In this document: positions 26,109 through 42,297 of the stretch, one piece after another
Layout of the letters: each line of letters starts with the position of its first letter
How positions within the stretch are numbered: position 1 is the first letter of the stretch
From: an uncultured Chloroflexia bacterium
GTDB taxonomy: Bacteria; Chloroflexota; Limnocylindria; QHBO01
Reading direction: 5' to 3'
Length of the DNA stretch: 64,000 bases
NCBI GenBank assembly: GCA_963825525.1
Contig: CAWGTN010000001.1
Coordinates: 96,001 to 160,000, forward strand
Made by a program: the position numbers and the translations under genes
The notes under the pieces: model-generated
Databases searched by the model: none
Told to the model about the DNA's origin: nothing
What the model saw: only the letters and a program-made list of their open reading frames with translations

Positions 26109-26201
26109 GGAGAGGTCGCATAGTGGCCTAGTGCGGCGGTTTGCTAAACCGTTGAAGGGGGTAAACCTCTTCCGAGGGTTCGAATCCCTCCCTCTCCGCC
26201 A
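26109..26201 (+). tRNA. tRNA-Ser(GCT)
   Basis: GCGGT-TT-GCT-AA-ACCGT; long variable arm; GCCA. Confidence 0.95.
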
Positions 26202-26225: not shown

Positions 26226-26301
26226 GTGCCCGTAGCTCAGTGGATAGAGCGTTAGGTTGCGGACCTAAAGGTCGGAGGTTCGAGTCCTCTCGGGCACGCC
26301 A
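26226..26301 (+). tRNA. tRNA-Arg(GCG)
   Basis: GTGCCCG/CGGGCAC acceptor stem; TGGATAGAGC D-arm with A20; TTAGG-TT-GCG-GA-CCTAA; GCCA. Confidence 0.95.
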
Positions 26302-30538: not shown

Positions 30539-30684
30539 CGGTCTCTCGTGGGTATCGGCCGCCCGAGGCGGTGGTTTGGTGTCGTCGTTGACCACCCGAA
30601 GTGCAGGATTCGTACCGGGCACCTGCTAGACTCCTGACCCTGGCTGCCCACGGAATCCGTGATCACGAGCGCGAGGCGGACCCG

Positions 30685-31125
30685 ATGAACTACGAGCTGT
30701 ACATGGCCGAGGCGATCGCCGAGGCCAAACGTGGCGGAGAAGAGGGGGAGGAGCCGGTCGGTGCTGTCGCCGTCATCGATGACGCGATGATCGCCCGCGA
30801 CCATCAGCGTGTCGCCCTCGGCGAGGACCCGACGGCGCATGCCGTCCTGCTGACCGTTCAGGCGGCCGCGCGCAAGCTCGGCAACCGCCGCCTGTCGGAG
30901 GCCACGATCTTCACGACCCATGAGCCGTGTGCCATGTGTGTCGGCGCCCTCGTCGAGGCTCGCATCCGCGCGCTCGTGTTCGCGGTCCCGGATCCGGACA
31001 GGGGAGCTGCCGGCGGCGCCATCAACCTGGCACGTGAGTCGGCCATGCCGCACCAGATCTCGGTGGTTTCCGGCGTTCGGGAGAGCGAGGCGCGCCGCCT
31101 CGACATCGCGTCGGCATCGGTCTAG
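30685..31125 (+). CDS. tadA: TadA-like deaminase-fold protein lacking the catalytic glutamate
   Basis: GEEPVGAV, DPTAHAV (normally HAE), EPCAMC, GAAG; canonical position before tRNA-Ser/ffs/dnaX. Confidence 0.88.
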   Translation: MNYELYMAEAIAEAKRGGEEGEEPVGAVAVIDDAMIARDHQRVALGEDPTAHAVLLTVQAAARKLGNRRLSEATIFTTHEPCAMCVGALVEARIRALVFAVPDPDRGAAGGAINLARESAMPHQISVVSGVRESEARRLDIASASV

Positions 31126-31172
31126 GGCTTCGTGGTCGCTGGCGGGGGAGTGCGCTAGACTCGCTCCGGCAC

Positions 31173-31259
<87 letters not shown>

Positions 31260-31269
31260 CGCCACCTGC

Positions 31270-31357
31270 GGAGAGGTCGCCTAGAGGCCTATGGCGCGGC
31301 ACTGGAAATGCCGTTCGGGGCAACCCGTCGAGGGTTCGAATCCCTCCCTCTCCGCCA
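31270..31357 (+). tRNA. tRNA-Ser(GGA)
   Basis: CGGCA-CT-GGA-AA-TGCCG; GCCA. Confidence 0.95.
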
Positions 31358-31399: not shown

Positions 31400-31668
31400 G
31401 GTCGTGCTAGGCGGGGAACCAGCGGTGCCCTGTATCCGCAATCCGCTATAGCGGAGCTGAATTCCCGGTCGAGGGCAGCATCGTTCGCCCACCACCACCG
31501 CGTCCGACGTTGAAAGTCGGGTCCCGCGCAGCGTAGGTCCGTGAACCCCGTCAGGTCCGGAAGGAAGCAGCGGTAAGCGATCGCCTTCGGGTGCCGCGGG
31601 ACAACCTGGCTGGAGCCGGACACGTGGGTGAGTGCGAGCTGGTGCTGATCGACACCGGGTGCACGACC
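31400..31668 (+). ncRNA. ffs: Signal recognition particle RNA, large (Alu-containing) form
   Basis: Helix 8 GTCAGGTCCGGAAGGAAGCAGC; Alu GCGGTGCCCTGTA..CCGC; ends pair as GGTCGTGC/GCACGACC. Confidence 0.93.
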
Positions 31669-31736
31669 TATTCATCACCTCGCCGCCCACGGCACGACGG
31701 ACCGACCGGCCGAATCGGTGTACGGTAGGTCTCGTC

Positions 31737-33335
31737 ATGCCGCCAGCCCAGCCCATGCCCCCCGTCTCCGAGCCCGCTTCGGCTGCCCCCCATCGCGCGC
31801 TGTACCGACGCTTCCGGGCGCAGCGCTTCGCCGAGCTCGTTGGCCAGGACCCCATCGTCACGACCCTGCGCCGCGCGGTGGCCGGCGACCGGCTGGCCCA
31901 CGCCTACCTGTTCGTGGGTCCACGCGGGACGGGCAAGACGTCGACGGCCCGCATCCTGGCCAAGGCAATCAACTGCACCGCCCTCGGCGACGACGGTGAG
32001 CCGTGCGATGCCTGCGCCGCCTGCACGTCGATTCGCGATGGCCGTGCCCTCGACGTCATCGAGATCGACGCCGCCAGCCACGGCCTGGTCGAGGACGCGC
32101 GTGACCTCGTCATGCGTGCGCTCACCGCTCCCAGTGAGCTCCGGCGCCGCGTCTACATCATCGACGAGGTCCACATGCTGAGCACCCATGCGTTCAACGC
32201 GCTGCTCAAGGTCATCGAGGAGCCGCCGGACCACGTCGTCTTCATCCTGGCAACCACCGACACCCACAAGGTCCCGGCCACCATCATCAGCCGCACCCAG
32301 CGACACGACTTCCGGCGCATGACCGAGCTGACCATCACCGGGAAGCTGCGACGGATCGTCGACGCCGAGAAGGTCGAGGCCGATGACGACGCACTCGACT
32401 TGATCGCCCGCCTCGCGGACGGTGGCATGCGCGACGCCGAGTCGCTGCTGGACCAGGTCCTGAGCTTCACGACCGGGCGGCTCTCGGCGACCGAGGTCCG
32501 CGAAGCCGTGGGGCTGGCCGACGACGCGGTCATCGCCGCCCTCGTTGACGCCTACGTCGCCGCCGACGTGCCCGCCGCCCTCGATCGGGTGGCCGAGATG
32601 GCTGACGCGGGCCGTGACATGGCGCAGGTCGCGTCCCAGGCGGAGGGGGAGGCTCGCCGTCGCCTGCTGGCGTCGGCATCGGATCCCGGAGCGGCTCGAC
32701 GCCTTGCCACGATTCTTCGAACCCTGGCCGAGGCTGCCGGCGCCGGCGCGCGCGAAGGCCGGGCCCGGCTCCTGCTCGAGCTCCTGAGTGTCGAGTCAGT
32801 CGAGTCCGATGCCCCGGCTGTCGCCGCACCACGGCCGGCGCCGATCGAAGCGAAGCCCGCTGCACGCGCCGAACCGGCCGTGCGGCGCGAGCCGATCGCC
32901 CCGACCCCGGCGGCGGCGGTGCCCGTGCAGCCGGCAACGTCATCGCCGGTCACGGTCGGCGCGGGTGACGTGGGAGAGCTGCGCACCCGATGGGCGGAGG
33001 TGGTGGCACGTGCCACGCCCGTCATCAAGCCCCTGCTCGGTGAGTGCCGCCCGATTGCCCGAGACGGAGCCCGGCTCACCCTCGCGTTTCCGGAGGGCCG
33101 CGACTTCATGCGTTCCCGTATCGCCCAACGCGCTGGCGCGATCGAGGCACTCCTCAACGACATGTTCGGAGGCCCGTTTGCCATCGAATGCGTGGCGAGC
33201 AACCTGGAGCTCGAGCCGCTGACCGTGGAACAGGCCATCGCGCCGGCTGCGGACGATCCGGAGGCCAAGGCGCTGCTTGACGGCGTACTCAAGATCACCG
33301 GGGGAGAGCTCGTCGACGCGCCCGAAGTGCGCTAG
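31737..33335 (+). CDS. dnaX: DNA polymerase III subunit gamma/tau
   Basis: LYRRFR..F.ELVGQ, GPRGTGKT, IIDEVHML, EEPP. Confidence 0.96.
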   Translation: MPPAQPMPPVSEPASAAPHRALYRRFRAQRFAELVGQDPIVTTLRRAVAGDRLAHAYLFVGPRGTGKTSTARILAKAINCTALGDDGEPCDACAACTSIRDGRALDVIEIDAASHGLVEDARDLVMRALTAPSELRRRVYIIDEVHMLSTHAFNALLKVIEEPPDHVVFILATTDTHKVPATIISRTQRHDFRRMTELTITGKLRRIVDAEKVEADDDALDLIARLADGGMRDAESLLDQVLSFTTGRLSATEVREAVGLADDAVIAALVDAYVAADVPAALDRVAEMADAGRDMAQVASQAEGEARRRLLASASDPGAARRLATILRTLAEAAGAGAREGRARLLLELLSVESVESDAPAVAAPRPAPIEAKPAARAEPAVRREPIAPTPAAAVPVQPATSSPVTVGAGDVGELRTRWAEVVARATPVIKPLLGECRPIARDGARLTLAFPEGRDFMRSRIAQRAGAIEALLNDMFGGPFAIECVASNLELEPLTVEQAIAPAADDPEAKALLDGVLKITGGELVDAPEVR

Positions 33336-33378
33336 CGGGATCCCGGACCACCACGACACAGAACGAGGACCAGCCTTC

Positions 33379-33705
33379 GTGAACATCGGCCAGATCGCCA
33401 AGATGGCGCAACAGATGCAGACGCAGATGGCTCAGGCGCAGCAGGAGCTTGCCGAGACGACCCTCGAGGCAACCGCAGGCGGTGGTGCCGTGCGAATCGT
33501 CATCACCGGCGCACAGGAGGTGCGCAGCGTGGAGATCGACCCCTCGGCCATCGACCCGGACGAGGCGGAGATGCTCCAGGACCTGGTGCTATCGGCCATG
33601 AACGAGGCGATCAGCCGCAGCAAGGAGCTCGAGCGCGAGCGGATGGGCTCGATCGCCGGCGGCATGGGAATCCCCGGCATGCCGGGCCTGCCCGGCATGG
33701 GCTGA
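33379..33705 (+). CDS. YbaB/EbfC nucleoid-associated protein
   Basis: AGGGAV, EMLQDLV..A.NEA; lies between dnaX and recR. Confidence 0.93.
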   Translation: MNIGQIAKMAQQMQTQMAQAQQELAETTLEATAGGGAVRIVITGAQEVRSVEIDPSAIDPDEAEMLQDLVLSAMNEAISRSKELERERMGSIAGGMGIPGMPGLPGMG

Positions 33706-33712
33706 GGACCGA

Positions 33713-34324
33713 GTGGCCGGGCTCATTGCGCCGGTCGCGCGCCTGATCGAGGAGTTCAGCAAGCTCCCCGGGATCGGGACGAAGACCGCTCAGCGCCTCA
33801 CGTATCACGTGCTGCGCGCCTCGACCGACGATGCGCGCTCGCTGGCGACCGCCCTCGTCTCCATCAAGGAGGACGTGGACTACTGCAGCGTGTGCTCGAA
33901 CATCACCGAGACGGGCGTCGATCCCTGCCTGATCTGTGCCGATCCGCGCCGCGATGCGGCCCATATCTGCGTCGTCGAGGAGCCACTCGACGTGCTGGCA
34001 ATCGAGCGGACCAGCGAGTTCCGGGGGAGGTACCACGTCCTCCACGGCGCCATCAGCCCGATCGACGGCATCGGCCCGGACCGGATCCGCGCGCGTGAGC
34101 TCCTGGCCAGGGTCGCACAGGGCGGGGTGGAGGAGGTCATCCTCGCAACCAACCCGAATCTCGAGGGCGAGGCGACCGCCATGTATCTGGCGGACCTGCT
34201 CCGCGCACACGTCCCGACCATCACCCGGATCGCGCGTGGCCTGCCGGTGGGTGGCGACCTCGAGTACGCCGATGATGTCACCCTCATTCGATCGCTCCAG
34301 GGCCGGCGCAGCGTCGACGGCTGA
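33713..34324 (+). CDS. recR: Recombination mediator RecR
   Basis: LPGIGTKTAQRL, C4 zinc finger, CVVEEP, ATNPNLEGEATA. Confidence 0.97.
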   Translation: MAGLIAPVARLIEEFSKLPGIGTKTAQRLTYHVLRASTDDARSLATALVSIKEDVDYCSVCSNITETGVDPCLICADPRRDAAHICVVEEPLDVLAIERTSEFRGRYHVLHGAISPIDGIGPDRIRARELLARVAQGGVEEVILATNPNLEGEATAMYLADLLRAHVPTITRIARGLPVGGDLEYADDVTLIRSLQGRRSVDG

Positions 34325-34639: not shown

Positions 34640-36147
<1,508 letters not shown>

Positions 36148-36326
36148 GGGAGATATGTGGAACCGGTTCGCCGGAACCACGATCCCAGGTCGATCGGCCA
36201 GCTCGCCGCAAGGTCCGATGCTCGAGGGAGCATCGGGTAGTGAGCTGAACCGCCCTCGAAACTACCGACCTGATTCCCGCTGATAACGCGGATTCCTGTC
36301 ACTCTTCAGCAGCGCAAGCCGTGCGC

Positions 36327-36356
36327 GAAGCCGCCCCTCACCGGGCGGCTTCTTCG
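36327..36356 (+). terminator. Hairpin terminator after 16S
   Basis: GAAGCCGCCC/GGGCGGCTTC followed by TTCGT. Confidence 0.65.
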
Positions 36357-36381
36357 TGTCCTGGGCTGGACGGGAAGGAGG

Positions 36382-36591
36382 TCAGCCCGGGACGACGTCG
36401 ATCCAGCCCAGCGCGAAGGCGACGAAGAAGCCGACGATCAGGATGACGAAGGCCCAGCCCACCGCCAGCCGCGTGCGCCGTGATGTCGCGCTGCTGCCTC
36501 CGGAGGCCAACGCCCGCATCCGCTCGTCGGCCCGAAAGCCGCCTCTGACAGGATTAGGGTGTGGGTGCTCGGGTCGGTCGTGGTCGAGCAT
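36382..36591 (-). CDS. Small C-terminally anchored membrane protein
   Basis: 69 aa; GGAG RBS; single C-terminal TM ending LGWIDVVPG. Confidence 0.6.
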   Translation of the reverse strand: MLDHDRPEHPHPNPVRGGFRADERMRALASGGSSATSRRTRLAVGWAFVILIVGFFVAFALGWIDVVPG

Positions 36592-36612
36592 GATGGACTA
36601 GCTCCAGAGTGA

Positions 36613-36837
36613 TCAGGCGTTGAAGCCGGGCACCGAGATGACGCCGAGCCATCCCAGCAGCGCGTAGACGATGAGGGCCACAGCAGCGAGGCCAATGATC
36701 CAGCCCGTGGCTCTCCGGGAGCCGGAGCTGATCTCCCGTCCGTAGGGCCGATCGGCGCGCTCCGCACGCTCTGCGCGGCGGGCCTCGGTCTCCGACCAGT
36801 CGTTCGGTGTCATGCCGGTTCCCGGGTTGAACCCCAT
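36613..36837 (-). CDS. Small C-terminally anchored membrane protein (similar to its neighbour)
   Basis: 74 aa; GGAGG RBS; C-terminal TM ending LGWLGVISVPG. Confidence 0.65.
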   Translation of the reverse strand: MGFNPGTGMTPNDWSETEARRAERAERADRPYGREISSGSRRATGWIIGLAAVALIVYALLGWLGVISVPGFNA

Positions 36838-36931
36838 GGCGCGGCCTCCAATGCGTCGACCCACGCTAGCAGGCGTCACAAGCTCCAGTTGCGGACGCAG
36901 CTCGGCGGCTGCTACGATGCCGCCTCCCGAG

Positions 36932-37008
36932 GGGCGTTTAGCTCAGCTGGTTAGAGCACTGCCCTGATAAGGCAGAGGTCTCTGGTTCGAGTCCAGAAAC
37001 GCCCACCA
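36932..37008 (+). tRNA. tRNA-Ile(GAT)
   Basis: CTGCC-CT-GAT-AA-GGCAG; ACCA; TGCTACGAT -10 just upstream. Confidence 0.97.
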
Positions 37009-37036
37009 CCTCACCTCCCTCGACCCATGGAGCGCC

Positions 37037-37837
37037 GTGTCCTCGATGCCGCAGGAGCCCGCGCCAAGCACCGAGGATCGCCCGATGGGGGTCCTGGGCG
37101 AACCGAACGAGGACCGGGAGCTCCACGCGTCGATCGGCGGGGTCGTGTACGCCCGCCACCCCACGCGAACCCACCTGGTCACGGCCGATGACGACGCCGC
37201 CGTGGTCGTCCAGCGCTACGTCGGCGACCTGGGCAGCGATGTCCGGTTGGTGGCGATCAGCGAGCGGATGGTGGCCATCACCCAGGGACGCTCCTATCCG
37301 ATCCGCGACATCACCCCGAGCCCGCTCGCGCGGCTCCTCGAGCGCTTCGTGACGCGTCCCGGCTACGGGATCGGCCTCGGTTCGGCCGAGACCATGGAGC
37401 TCGCGATCCGCGAGGTCGGGGCGCCGCGCATCCTGCTGGCCGCGGGGCTGTCGGCCGTGACCAAGCCGTTCGGGGTGCACGGCATCTTCTACCGCGTCGC
37501 CGGCGCGCAGGCGAAGGCCATCGACGGCCCGACCAGCTACACGATTCCGCCGTACAACGATGCCGCCACGCTCGGTCCGAAGGACCCCGACGGCGCCGCG
37601 CGACAGATCGCTGCCGTACTCGACGCGCCGGTCGCGATCATCGACGCCAACGATGCGGGCTGCGCGGTGCTGGGTGCCAGCCCGGGTGTGGATCGGCGCT
37701 TCGTCGAGCGCCTGTTTGCGGACAACCCCCTGGGCCAGGCGCGCGAGCAGACGCCGATCTGCGTGGTGCGCGAGGTCGCCTGGCCGGCGGGACAGGCGCT
37801 CCCGCCCGAGCCGAAGCGACGGCTGACGCCACCCTGA
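37037..37837 (+). CDS. F420-0:gamma-glutamyl ligase (CofE-like) family protein
   Basis: TRTHLV, ISE.MVAITQGR, AIDGP...PPY....LGP.DPD, IIDAND, DNPLGQ..EQTP. Confidence 0.75.
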   Translation: MSSMPQEPAPSTEDRPMGVLGEPNEDRELHASIGGVVYARHPTRTHLVTADDDAAVVVQRYVGDLGSDVRLVAISERMVAITQGRSYPIRDITPSPLARLLERFVTRPGYGIGLGSAETMELAIREVGAPRILLAAGLSAVTKPFGVHGIFYRVAGAQAKAIDGPTSYTIPPYNDAATLGPKDPDGAARQIAAVLDAPVAIIDANDAGCAVLGASPGVDRRFVERLFADNPLGQAREQTPICVVREVAWPAGQALPPEPKRRLTPP

Positions 37838-37844
37838 CCCCGGC

Positions 37845-38702
37845 GTGAGCGATCGGGAGTTCATTCTCACCCTGTCCTGCCCGGACCGTCGGGGCATCGT
37901 GCTTGCCGTGGCGCGGGCCATCGCCGACGGCGGTGGCAACATCCTGGACAGCCAGCAGTTCGGCGACCCGGACGCCTCCGTGTTCTTCATGCGCGTCCAC
38001 TTCGCCGATGAGGCCGCGGGCGACATCGATGCCTGGCGCGCCACATTTGGCGACCTCTCCGCCGACGGCGCGTGGCGCTGGGAGCTCCACGATGCACGGC
38101 ACCGGCAGCGGATGCTCATCGCGGTGTCGCGCGAGGGGCACTGCGTCAACGACCTGCTCTACCGGTGGCAGAGCGGCGCCATCGCGGCCGAGGTGGTGGG
38201 CGTCGTGTCGACGTCGCGAGACTTCGAGGCCCTGGCCGCCGGGTATGGCGTCAGCCATTTCGTGCTGCCGGACGGAGCGGCCGGCCCCGAGGCCCGCGAC
38301 AACGCGATCCTGGAGCTGGTGGCGGAGCACAACGTGGAGCGTGGTCGTACTCGCTCGATACATGCAGCATCCTCGGAGCGCGAGCATGCGCCGAGCTCGC
38401 CGGTCGCGCCATCAACATCCACCACTCGTTCCTGCCCTCGTTCAAGGGCGCGCGGCCCGTATGCCCAGGCCCACCAGCGAGGCGTAAAGCTCATCGGGGC
38501 GACGGCCCACTACGTCACGGAGGTTCTCGACGAGGGCCCGATCATCGAACAGGAGGTCGCCCGAGTCGACCATGCGCACAGCGTCGCCGAGCTGGCTCGC
38601 GTCGGGCGCGATGTGGAGTGCGTCGCGCTGGCGCGCGCCGTGCGCTGGCACCTCGAGCATCGGGTACTTCTGCACGGCGATCGGACGGTCGTCTTCCGGT
38701 AG
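37845..38702 (+). CDS. purU: Formyltetrahydrofolate deformylase (three +1 shifts at ~38340, 38368 and 38456, net in frame)
   Basis: LSCPDRRGIV, FFMRV, GVKLIGATAHYVT..LDEGPII; VVLARYMQ and INIHHSFLPSFKG appear in alternate frames. Confidence 0.93.
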   Translation: MSDREFILTLSCPDRRGIVLAVARAIADGGGNILDSQQFGDPDASVFFMRVHFADEAAGDIDAWRATFGDLSADGAWRWELHDARHRQRMLIAVSREGHCVNDLLYRWQSGAIAAEVVGVVSTSRDFEALAAGYGVSHFVLPDGAAGPEARDNAILELVAEHNVERGRTRSIHAASSEREHAPSSPVAPSTSTTRSCPRSRARGPYAQAHQRGVKLIGATAHYVTEVLDEGPIIEQEVARVDHAHSVAELARVGRDVECVALARAVRWHLEHRVLLHGDRTVVFR

Positions 38703-38707
38703 TGGCT

Positions 38708-38736
38708 TTGACCCGGTGGCCGACGCCGGATACGAT
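38708..38736 (+). promoter_or_regulatory. Promoter for tRNA-Ala
   Basis: TTGACC-17-TACGAT. Confidence 0.75.
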
Positions 38737-38747
38737 GCGCTGGCCGT

Positions 38748-38823
38748 GGGGATGTAGCTCAGCTGGGAGAGCACCTCCTTTGCAAGGAGGGGGTCAGGGG
38801 TTCGAGTCCCCTCATCTCCACCA
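38748..38823 (+). tRNA. tRNA-Ala(TGC)
   Basis: G3:U70 pair; CCTCC-TT-TGC-AA-GGAGG; ACCA. Confidence 0.97.
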
Positions 38824-38858
38824 CGTTTCATCGGGCTGCCGGGCTACATCGAGGCGTG

Positions 38859-38887
38859 TTGACCGGCTTCCGGCGGGGTGATACAGT
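38859..38887 (+). promoter_or_regulatory. Dedicated 23S-5S promoter
   Basis: TTGACC-17-TACAGT with an extended TG. Confidence 0.75.
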
Positions 38888-39222
38888 AACTCGGCTCTCG
38901 CGGGGAGACCACTGCAGGTCCTCCTCGCGTTCGTTGTGACAAGCCCACATGAAATGGTCTTCTGACCGCTGCGCGCGACCCTCGTGGCGCCCATCGGTCA
39001 GCGGATACATCGCTGACGCCGTGACGGATTCCGTCGCCAGGCGTCGACCGGACGGCCAAGTGTCGACCGGCGGGCCCGTCGAACGAACCGGCATGGCGAG
39101 CGCCCAACGCGGGCGCGCGACCTTATCAATCGAAGATTGGAAGCATCGATTTCGTCGAGGAGATTCCGACGCGACCGCATCGTGGCGACGGCCAGCACCG
39201 TGCTAGCCGCGTGAGCGTTGTA

Positions 39223-42297
<3,075 letters not shown>

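Follow-up and report, generated by a model that had tools for sequence, protein, structure and literature searches.

Introduction

TadA is the tRNA adenosine(34) deaminase of bacteria (EC 3.5.4.33; NF008113), in which the Glu of the HAE motif acts as the proton shuttle. It is regarded as a single-purpose, usually essential enzyme with one tRNA substrate, and has become the scaffold of adenine base editors. Here we describe a tadA-derived gene at positions 30685..31125 (forward strand) of a 64,000-nucleotide stretch of DNA from a bacterium of the class Candidatus Limnocylindria, phylum Chloroflexota (contig CAWGTN010000001.1 of assembly GCA_963825525.1, positions 96,001 to 160,000; hereafter the window), in which a Val occupies the place of the catalytic Glu. 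A sequence-only reading of the window had proposed that this lineage left inosine wobble decoding and kept the zinc-binding deaminase fold in a non-catalytic role. Based on the analysis presented here, the gene is a descendant of tadA that is under selection, almost certainly non-catalytic and coupled to inosine-free arginine decoding.

The passages on the TadA/Tad2/Tad3 family in PMC3239186 give as the TadA signature a Glu before strand 1, an Asn in strand 2, the EPCxMC motif, a basic residue after strand 4, and a Glu and a Phe in the first C-terminal helix, and they note Tad3 as a member without the Glu. For mouse ADAT3, the corresponding parts of PMC8216470 describe a Val at the position of the proton-shuttle Glu, a retained zinc ion with its His/Cys/Cys ligands, a C-terminal helix shorter than the anticodon-loop-binding helix of TadA, lost loop-recognition pockets and a negative surface. 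Bacteria that abandoned the modification have been described as well. In the Mollicutes, loss of tadA went together with a change of tRNA-Arg from ACG to GCG and the gain of UCG, according to the relevant section of Yokobori et al., 2013 (PMC3711424). The section on inosine in PMC6063277, whose analysis leaves Thermotogae aside, reports its loss in Spirochaetes and one further group, and tRNA-Arg(GCG) is mentioned for Thermotogae and Spirochaetes in the part of PMC8007984 that deals with this tRNA. A bacterial TadA that lacks the Glu as a conserved trait did not come up in searches of the full-text literature; the supplementary tables of PMC3711424 and PMC6063277, which lay outside these searches, may list the presence of tadA for individual genomes.

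Results

The open reading frame (ORF) at 30685..31125 (+) is intact and encodes 146 amino acids followed by a stop codon, as the sequence-only reading had stated. Codon 54 (GTC, 30844..30846, +) specifies Val instead of the catalytic Glu in the H-A-E motif, so that the protein has DPTAHAV and TadA DPTAHAE. The zinc ligands that had been noticed as kept are all present, namely His52 (30838..30840, +), the first ligand, and Cys82 and Cys85 of the PCxxC motif (C82-A-M-C85, 30928..30939, +). All three residues were found in 100% of the sequences in a comparison of 87 unique full-length members of the clade with the HAV motif and 81 canonical TadAs. Set against the family signature in PMC3239186, the protein has E22, EPCAMC and E135, and the signature Asn, Lys and Phe are replaced by Q41, D105 and S143. 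The protein matched the Pfam families MafB19-deam (1.8e-26) and dCMP_cyt_deam_1 (8e-22). Its best NCBIfam model was TadA (NF008113) with 116.7 bits, which is under the cut-off of 150 bits, but the score test alone is weak, as canonical TadAs from another family of the same class (f2, see below) likewise scored under this cut-off (129-143 bits).

An AlphaFold2 model, which had been proposed as a check, was built and gave a predicted local distance difference test score (pLDDT) of 96.1 and a predicted template modelling score of 0.91. It confirmed the TadA fold: the template modelling (TM) scores to the solved TadAs 7cph, 2b3j and 1z3a were 0.95-0.97, with a root mean square deviation of ~1 Å over 144-146 columns at 34-43% identity, and the helix after strand 5 that is typical for TadA was present. 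The last 6 residues were modelled at lower confidence (block mean pLDDT 71); in ADAT3, a residue of the C-terminus caps the pocket as fourth zinc ligand.

The genome to which the window belongs consists of 2.58 Mb in 4 contigs, has a GC content of 68.5% and is 91.8% complete. Its Arg tRNA upstream of the tadA-like gene has G34, as had been seen: the tRNA-Arg(GCG) gene (26226..26301, +; 70.6 bits) lies 4.4 kb upstream and replaces the TadA substrate tRNA-Arg(ACG). It is accompanied by its constant neighbour, a predicted tRNA-Ser(GCT) gene (26109..26201, +). ARAGORN detected 52 tRNA genes for all 20 amino acids in the whole genome, and those for Arg had the anticodons GCG, TCG, CCG, TCT and CCT. 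The predicted presence of Arg-GCG and Arg-TCG was therefore borne out, and no ACG tRNA, and no A34 tRNA of any kind, was found among the 52 predictions. According to standard wobble rules G34 reads CGC and CGU, U34 reads CGA (and CGG), and C34 reads CGG, so that this set would read all CGN codons without inosine. In 679 long ORFs the Arg codons were distributed as CGC 42.5%, CGG 26.6%, CGA 13.6%, CGT 10.3%, AGG 5.4% and AGA 1.7%. Some predictions on contigs C1-C3 were over-long or odd, including one of 97 nt at C2:839385, whose anticodon (cgag) has four bases, and Ala, Pro and Thr tRNAs of 90-100 nt; they may be spurious or represent genes with introns.

When the whole genome was searched in six frames with PF00383 and the TadA model, only two genes of the cytidine deaminase (CDA) fold were found. 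The search for a second TadA of the HAE type was negative in this genome, as the other CDA-fold gene, on contig 3, encodes a yeast-type cytosine deaminase that matched PDB 1ysb/1uaq from end to end (6e-48) and has HGE and PCDMC motifs. Cytosine deaminases of this yeast (Fcy1-like) type are rare in bacteria; the gene (G000 contig 3, 67824-68117, minus strand; locus L002, 1351-1800) adjoins a large membrane-protein-like ORF.

The gene was followed in 110 related loci, 30 of them from species-representative genomes and 80 from public contigs, some genomes being counted twice. The motif at the catalytic site was HAV in 104 loci, HAL in one and HAE in five. A single base error had been judged unlikely, and this stood, with 104 of 110 loci from independent assemblies reading HAV. 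The supporting argument that GTC differs from GAG/GAA at two positions did not, as GTG is found in 40 of 78 relatives and the Val probably arose from GAG in one step to GTG. Codon 54 in the 78 aligned orthologues was GTG in 40, GTC in 35 and GTT in 2 (Val in 77 of 78), the remaining one being CTG (Leu). The retention of Val through three synonymous codons shows that the Val itself is selected. Contigs from an independent soil DNA run spanned codon 54 and showed no difference there, and one RNA-library contig of a relative had GTG at this codon.

The identity of the orthologues to the window protein ranged from 94% down to 46%. Most were 144-160 residues long (173 in L028), and shorter ones were cut at contig ends. 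In locus L024 (G014:C11:105861-106299), a frame break past residue ~43 divides the orthologue. No other copy in the loci that were read is broken, and this one is due to a faulty assembly or is a true pseudogene. The ratio of nonsynonymous to synonymous substitution rates (dN/dS; Nei-Gojobori, pairs with dS 0.05-1) had a median of 0.22 for the tadA-like gene (2345 pairs). For 1226 genome pairs in common it was 0.214, compared to 0.162 for recR, and ybaB gave 0.30; the gene thus ranks between these two neighbours, which indicates purifying selection; the orthologues that the sequence-only reading had wanted to see collected were intact, and neutral decay was not seen. In a phylogeny of 130 rows, 44 of the 45 HAV rows formed one pure clade and P0016 was placed elsewhere. 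Judged by synteny and tree, the window gene is a descendant of tadA. Six RNA-library runs gave small shares, mostly of tRNA-Ser and signal recognition particle (SRP) RNA parts, and contigs of one study covered approximately residues 1-82 of a relative at ~88-90% identity, which is a weak hint of expression.

The genomes of the class were grouped in families f1-f5, with the window genome in f1. Each of the 18 orthologues at genus level for which a locus was fetched had HAV, as had six f3 genomes, and HAE was found in four f2 genomes and one f5 genome with a strong match. In the f1 and f3 genomes searched, no second match was better than E = 8e-14. ARAGORN located tRNA-Arg(GCG) in 26 of 29 fetched loci (f1, f3, f4), and tRNA-Ser(GCT) adjoined it in 25 of those 26, the exception being genome G027. 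The f3 and f4 genomes had the same CCG+TCG+GCG set of Arg tRNAs, and the f2 genomes G025, G037 and G029 carried tRNA-Arg(ACG).

Anticodon-arm patterns were additionally run over 301 genomes of the class; the counts given here refer to the 300 other than the window's own. The patterns demand one D-stem sequence and thus undercount (the GCG tRNA of G027, for example, was missed), and reversed-pattern controls gave one match in the GCG run and none in the ACG run. The tallies include four (GCG) and three (ACG) unpublished genomes, and genome G006 was among those compared for the positions of the tadA-like gene and tRNA-Arg(GCG); no conclusion rests on any of these. The GCG pattern matched in 83/103 f1, 68/91 f3, 10/12 f4, 0/2 f5 and 1/92 f2 genomes, and the ACG pattern in 0/103, 0/91, 0/12, 0/2 and 27/92, respectively. 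The proposal that this lineage has left inosine wobble decoding agrees with these counts (ACG pattern in none of the 206 f1, f3 and f4 genomes) and with the window genome, where none of the 52 tRNAs has ACG or any A34. The expected co-occurrence of Glu loss and GCG was also found.

The class shows three states, which are HAE with ACG (f2), HAV with GCG (f1, f3), and GCG without tadA (f4 and one f2 genome). The f4 genomes are small (1.0-1.4 Mb). No TadA-like gene was found in the five of them that were searched (91-93% complete), and the sole CDA-fold match in four of these five was a cytidine-deaminase-like protein, as judged by motifs. The one f2 genome is G027 (97% complete), which has a tandem of tRNA-Arg(GCG) and tRNA-Arg(TCG) on contig C26 (loci L055, L172). 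A tadA-like gene was not found in G027, where the best match to the TadA model was RibD with 47 bits. On its 130-kb contig there was also no tadA within 7.3 kb upstream of the tRNA-Ser/ffs/ybaB/recR block, the place at which its congener G039 (f2) carries its HAE tadA. Once a lineage has moved to GCG, tadA can thus either disappear or stay on as the HAV form. G027 and the pattern in f1, f3 and f4 taken together indicate that the move to GCG was made at least twice in the class, or that the tRNA gene was transferred; acquisition of the tRNA-Arg(GCG) gene by G027 through transfer is a possibility. The GCG tRNA of G027 is 93% identical to that of the window.

The residues that changed with the Glu were determined by comparing the 87 HAV-clade sequences with the 81 canonical TadAs. 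Position 54 itself is Glu in 100% of the canonical TadAs and Val in 99% of the HAV clade. Position 41, which is Asn in 99% of the canonical sequences, is Asp in 69%, Gln in 17% and Arg in 8% of the clade; the window protein has Gln41 (30805..30807, +), as placed by the consensus comparison and the alignment to 2b3j. Arg at position 93 dropped from 98% to 53%. Position 105 is Lys in 78% of the canonical TadAs and Glu, Arg or Asp in the clade (Asp in the window protein), position 122 is Asn in 79% and Pro in 69%, respectively (Pro in the window protein), and position 143 is Phe in 86% of the canonical TadAs and Ser or Ala in the clade (Ser in the window protein). The claimed loss of tRNA-contact residues was therefore recovered against both the solved TadAs and the 81-sequence consensus, with Gln41, Asp105, Pro122 and Ser143 at the places of the canonical Asn, Lys, Asn and Phe.

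The C-terminal end is shortened, with a median of 17 residues after the core in the HAV clade compared to 27 in canonical TadA, and the C-terminal aromatic pair is present in only 1% of the clade. The sequence-only reading had held the C-terminal FF-RR helix to be absent. Its aromatic and basic residues are indeed lost, but the helix itself is not, as a short one was modelled at 133-144. The clade is also acidic throughout: all 87 sequences have a negative net charge (median -6, range -10 to -2; pI 5.2), compared to +1 and pI 7.7 for canonical TadA. Additionally, residues at sites that are variable in canonical TadAs have become nearly invariant in the HAV clade. These are N2-Y3-E4-L5 (99-100%), D32-D33-A34-M35 (91-99%) and L115-A116 (100%), and further A29, R38, H40, R42, S129, R132 and L139. 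That old constraints disappeared and new ones arose marks a change of function rather than a relaxation.

P0016, the HAV protein outside the main clade, has relatives among Rhodothermales-type TadAs (66% identity to Rhodothermus marinus). Among the 120 relatives of P0016 listed, HAV was found in 6 (P0016, P0166, P0168, P0173, P0177 and P0194) and HAE in 110, and all six HAV proteins came from short assembled contigs. The Asn of position 41 is still present in four of the six and a recognisable basic/aromatic end of the C-terminal helix in at least three, for which reason this lineage looks younger. In P0016, Asn41, Leu79 and Asn122 have been replaced too, with Asn122 changed to Pro as in Limnocylindria. 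A metagenome scan with P0016 gave 80 loci, none of them HAV (79 were HAE by regular expression and L212 was HAE in the printed sequence). By their sequences, the Rhodothermales-type HAV TadAs appear to be a second, independent group.

Directly downstream of the tadA-like gene, on the same strand, are predicted genes for tRNA-Ser(CGA) and tRNA-Ser(GGA) (31173..31357, +), the SRP RNA gene ffs (31402..31666, +; RF01854, 181.5 bits) and, by gene matches, dnaX, ybaB and recR (31632..34324, +), the ancestral downstream block that marks the tadA locus. The order tadA-tRNA-Ser-ffs-dnaX-ebfC-recR noticed earlier was therefore recovered, ebfC being listed here as ybaB. In all 41 loci of at least 10 kb the tadA-like gene was followed by tRNA-Ser, ffs and ybaB-recR, and dnaX was matched in 38 of them. 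Inference of a partner from the gene neighbourhood was considered and rejected, as the constant part is the ancestral downstream block only. One member of the genus carries an additional gene of the deaminase fold, with the motif HPE, at a distance of ~350 nt from its tadA-like gene (L019, 891-1136; G010:C9:5809-6069); it is not at the corresponding place in the window. The rRNA operon of the window (34640-40000) has its 16S end at 36144, tRNA-Ile at 36932-37008, tRNA-Ala at 38748-38823 and the 23S start at 39223, and the 16S-23S spacer of ~3.1 kb, of which 1.7 kb lies between its two tRNAs, is unusually long.

The gene had been credited with a -10 element of its own, and an extended -10-like promoter element, TGCTAGACT, is found at 30625..30633 (+). 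The general form TGnTAnnnT is found no more than 120 nt ahead of the gene in 78 of 79 orthologous loci, with exactly TGCTAGACT in 66 of its occurrences. A consensus promoter scanner made no call at this element, and its support comes from conservation upstream of the orthologues instead. In many orthologues among loci L075-L154 the start codon follows only 7-12 nt past the -10 of the TGCTAGACT type, which suggests leaderless mRNAs. The window's genus has a leader of ~45 nt with a GAGG Shine-Dalgarno-like site and a short inverted repeat, CACGGA-A-TCCGTG (30649..30661, +), that occurs in some lineages only. A role of this leader hairpin as anticodon-arm mimic or autoregulatory site was rejected as a general feature, as many orthologues look leaderless. 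A similar element, GCGCTAGACT, precedes tRNA-Ser at 31153-31162, and the TGCTAGACT/GCGCTAGACT type may be the general -10 form of this lineage.

Discussion

The gene in the window is an orthologue of tadA that has lost both its catalytic Glu and its substrate, while the fold and the zinc ligands are kept. It evolves under purifying selection, and with constraints specific to its clade. We consider it probable that the protein is a catalytically dead, zinc-stabilised pseudo-deaminase that selection has kept as a binding module for a partner other than the anticodon loop of tRNA-Arg; this partner is more likely a protein or a small ligand than an RNA. In the f1/f3 clade, whose members are bacteria of soil and freshwater, CGN decoding would have moved from tRNA-Arg(ICG)+CCG to tRNA-Arg(GCG)+UCG+CCG, by which TadA would have lost its only substrate. 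Its proton-shuttle Glu would have changed to Val, probably through GAG to GTG, and the protein would have been remodelled rather than discarded, its TadA fold and its zinc site (His/Cys/Cys) being retained. The Asn, Lys, Asn and Phe positions for the anticodon loop and the basic end of the C-terminal helix would have been given up, and the protein would have turned acidic and gained its own set of invariant residues. The newly invariant residues strengthen the case for a new non-catalytic role.

The retained fold, pocket-forming zinc site and tadA locus would also suit a protein that still binds the anticodon loop of tRNA-Arg non-catalytically, as chaperone, protector or tRNA-Arg sensor, with G34 resembling the product inosine. 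The tRNA-Arg(GCG) gene is ~1-11 kb away from the tadA-like gene in f1 and f3 genomes when contig positions are compared, and an RNA-binder role is proposed for inactive deaminase domains in the passages of PMC3239186 that discuss them. However, we find such a role rather unlikely. The canonical Asn41, Arg93, Lys105, Asn122 and Phe143 and the basic C-terminal end are no longer conserved, every clade member is acidic, and the loop of the GCG tRNA differs from that of the ACG tRNA at positions 32 and 37. Furthermore, the long C-terminal helix is called essential for anticodon-loop binding in the pertinent part of PMC8216470. The strictly conserved zinc ligands and pocket residues could instead belong to an enzyme with another substrate, or with another residue as the proton shuttle, such as position 41 (Asp in 69% of the clade) or position 79 (His in 78%). 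The mutant data in that part of PMC8216470 can be read in both directions, as the ADAT2-E73A/ADAT3-deltaC mutant was weakly active and ADAT2-E73A 'hardly retained any activity'. A proton shuttle relocated to Asp41 or His79 was rejected, since the clade conserves neither: the window genome has Gln at position 41, and position 79 is H, R, L, V, I, Q, N or C. Together with the lack of any A34 tRNA among the 52 predictions, this makes a surviving enzyme improbable.

The frame break in G014 and the loss of the gene in f4 and G027 would be expected of a leftover in slow decay. The DNA might also be kept only for signals of the downstream tRNA-Ser and ffs, as the -10-like element of tRNA-Ser starts 28 nt past the stop codon, so that the region upstream of this element reaches into the 3' end of the tadA-like gene. 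These explanations seem very unlikely to us, as the dN/dS of 0.21 is within the range of housekeeping neighbours, even orthologues with no more than 46% identity are intact and have kept their length, and Val54 was kept through synonymous codon turnover. A signal would constrain the last few codons only, whereas the new invariant residues occur all along the protein. An error of sequencing or assembly at the Val codon has next to no probability, given the independent assemblies with HAV, the independent DNA run that agrees at codon 54 and the RNA-library contig of a relative with GTG.

Several observations weigh against a selected pseudo-deaminase. The gene is dispensable in some backgrounds, as five f4 genomes and G027 have tRNA-Arg(GCG) and no tadA-like gene. 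The window genome is 91.8% complete, so that a gene may have been missed. No conserved neighbouring protein gene hints at a partner, as the upstream genes vary (the nearest one in 23 of 41 loci). The RNA-library contigs are partial, come from a relative and may derive from DNA, so that transcription is itself inferred. The Val-type pocket may not be absolutely dead, by analogy with the weak tRNA-Ala deamination of the ADAT2-E73A/ADAT3-deltaC mutant in the part of PMC8216470 cited above. Lastly, zinc binding, inactivity and any partner are likewise inferred.

The probable pseudo-deaminase described here has lost substrate and catalytic residue and is still under selection across hundreds of genomes. 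This is a natural experiment that isolates any editing-independent function of the TadA scaffold, and it offers a bacterial single-domain counterpart of ADAT3 for studying how pseudo-deaminases originate. It is also a documented case of CGN decoding without inosine in a free-living lineage whose genomes are large and GC-rich instead of reduced. A Val-type zinc-binding pseudo-deaminase might be the recurrent, directional outcome when inosine-34 is abandoned, having arisen independently in Limnocylindria, in the Rhodothermales-type lineage and in eukaryotic ADAT3. The TadA scaffold would then have a second, editing-independent function, so far undescribed in bacteria, e.g. as adaptor for a partner protein, and this function would show only after the loss of catalysis; for now we regard this generalisation as doubtful. 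In public databases the HAV proteins are named 'nucleoside deaminase' (NCBI) or 'tRNA(adenine34) deaminase' (IMG), and these names should be flagged as annotation errors. A naturally inert yet stable TadA variant may also be of interest to base-editor engineers.

In comparison to bacterial TadA, the window protein has an orthologous locus, the same fold, the His/Cys/Cys zinc motif, EPCxMC, the Glu before strand 1 and a similar length. It differs in having Val for the catalytic Glu, in the lost Asn, Lys, Asn and Phe, in its acidity and in a short C-terminal helix without the basic end, scores 116.7 bits with the TadA model, short of its cut-off of 150, and comes from a genome in which no substrate tRNA was found among 52 predictions. 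With eukaryotic ADAT3/Tad3 (PDB 7nz7), which contributes no catalysis of its own to the ADAT2/ADAT3 tRNA deaminase, and as portrayed in the ADAT3 parts of PMC8216470, it shares the change from Glu to Val, the kept zinc ligands, the short C-terminal helix, the lost anticodon-loop determinants and the acidic character. In phmmer it matched ADAT3 (3.1e-14) better than ADAT2 (2e-8). Unlike ADAT3, it lacks the N-terminal tRNA-binding (ferredoxin-like) domain, having 146 amino acids and no extension in any of the 87 clade members; no active partner gene of the ADAT2/TadA type was found in the window genome, and the Limnocylindria form arose independently, within bacteria. With Mollicutes, Spirochaetes and Thermotogae, as treated in the relevant sections of PMC3711424, PMC6063277 and PMC8007984, the lineage shares inosine-free decoding. 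In those groups tadA is reported as lost in these sections, whereas in the f1 and f3 families of Limnocylindria it is kept, remodelled and selected, and the window genome, with 68.5% GC and 2.6 Mb, is not reduced and has kept tRNA-Arg(CCG).

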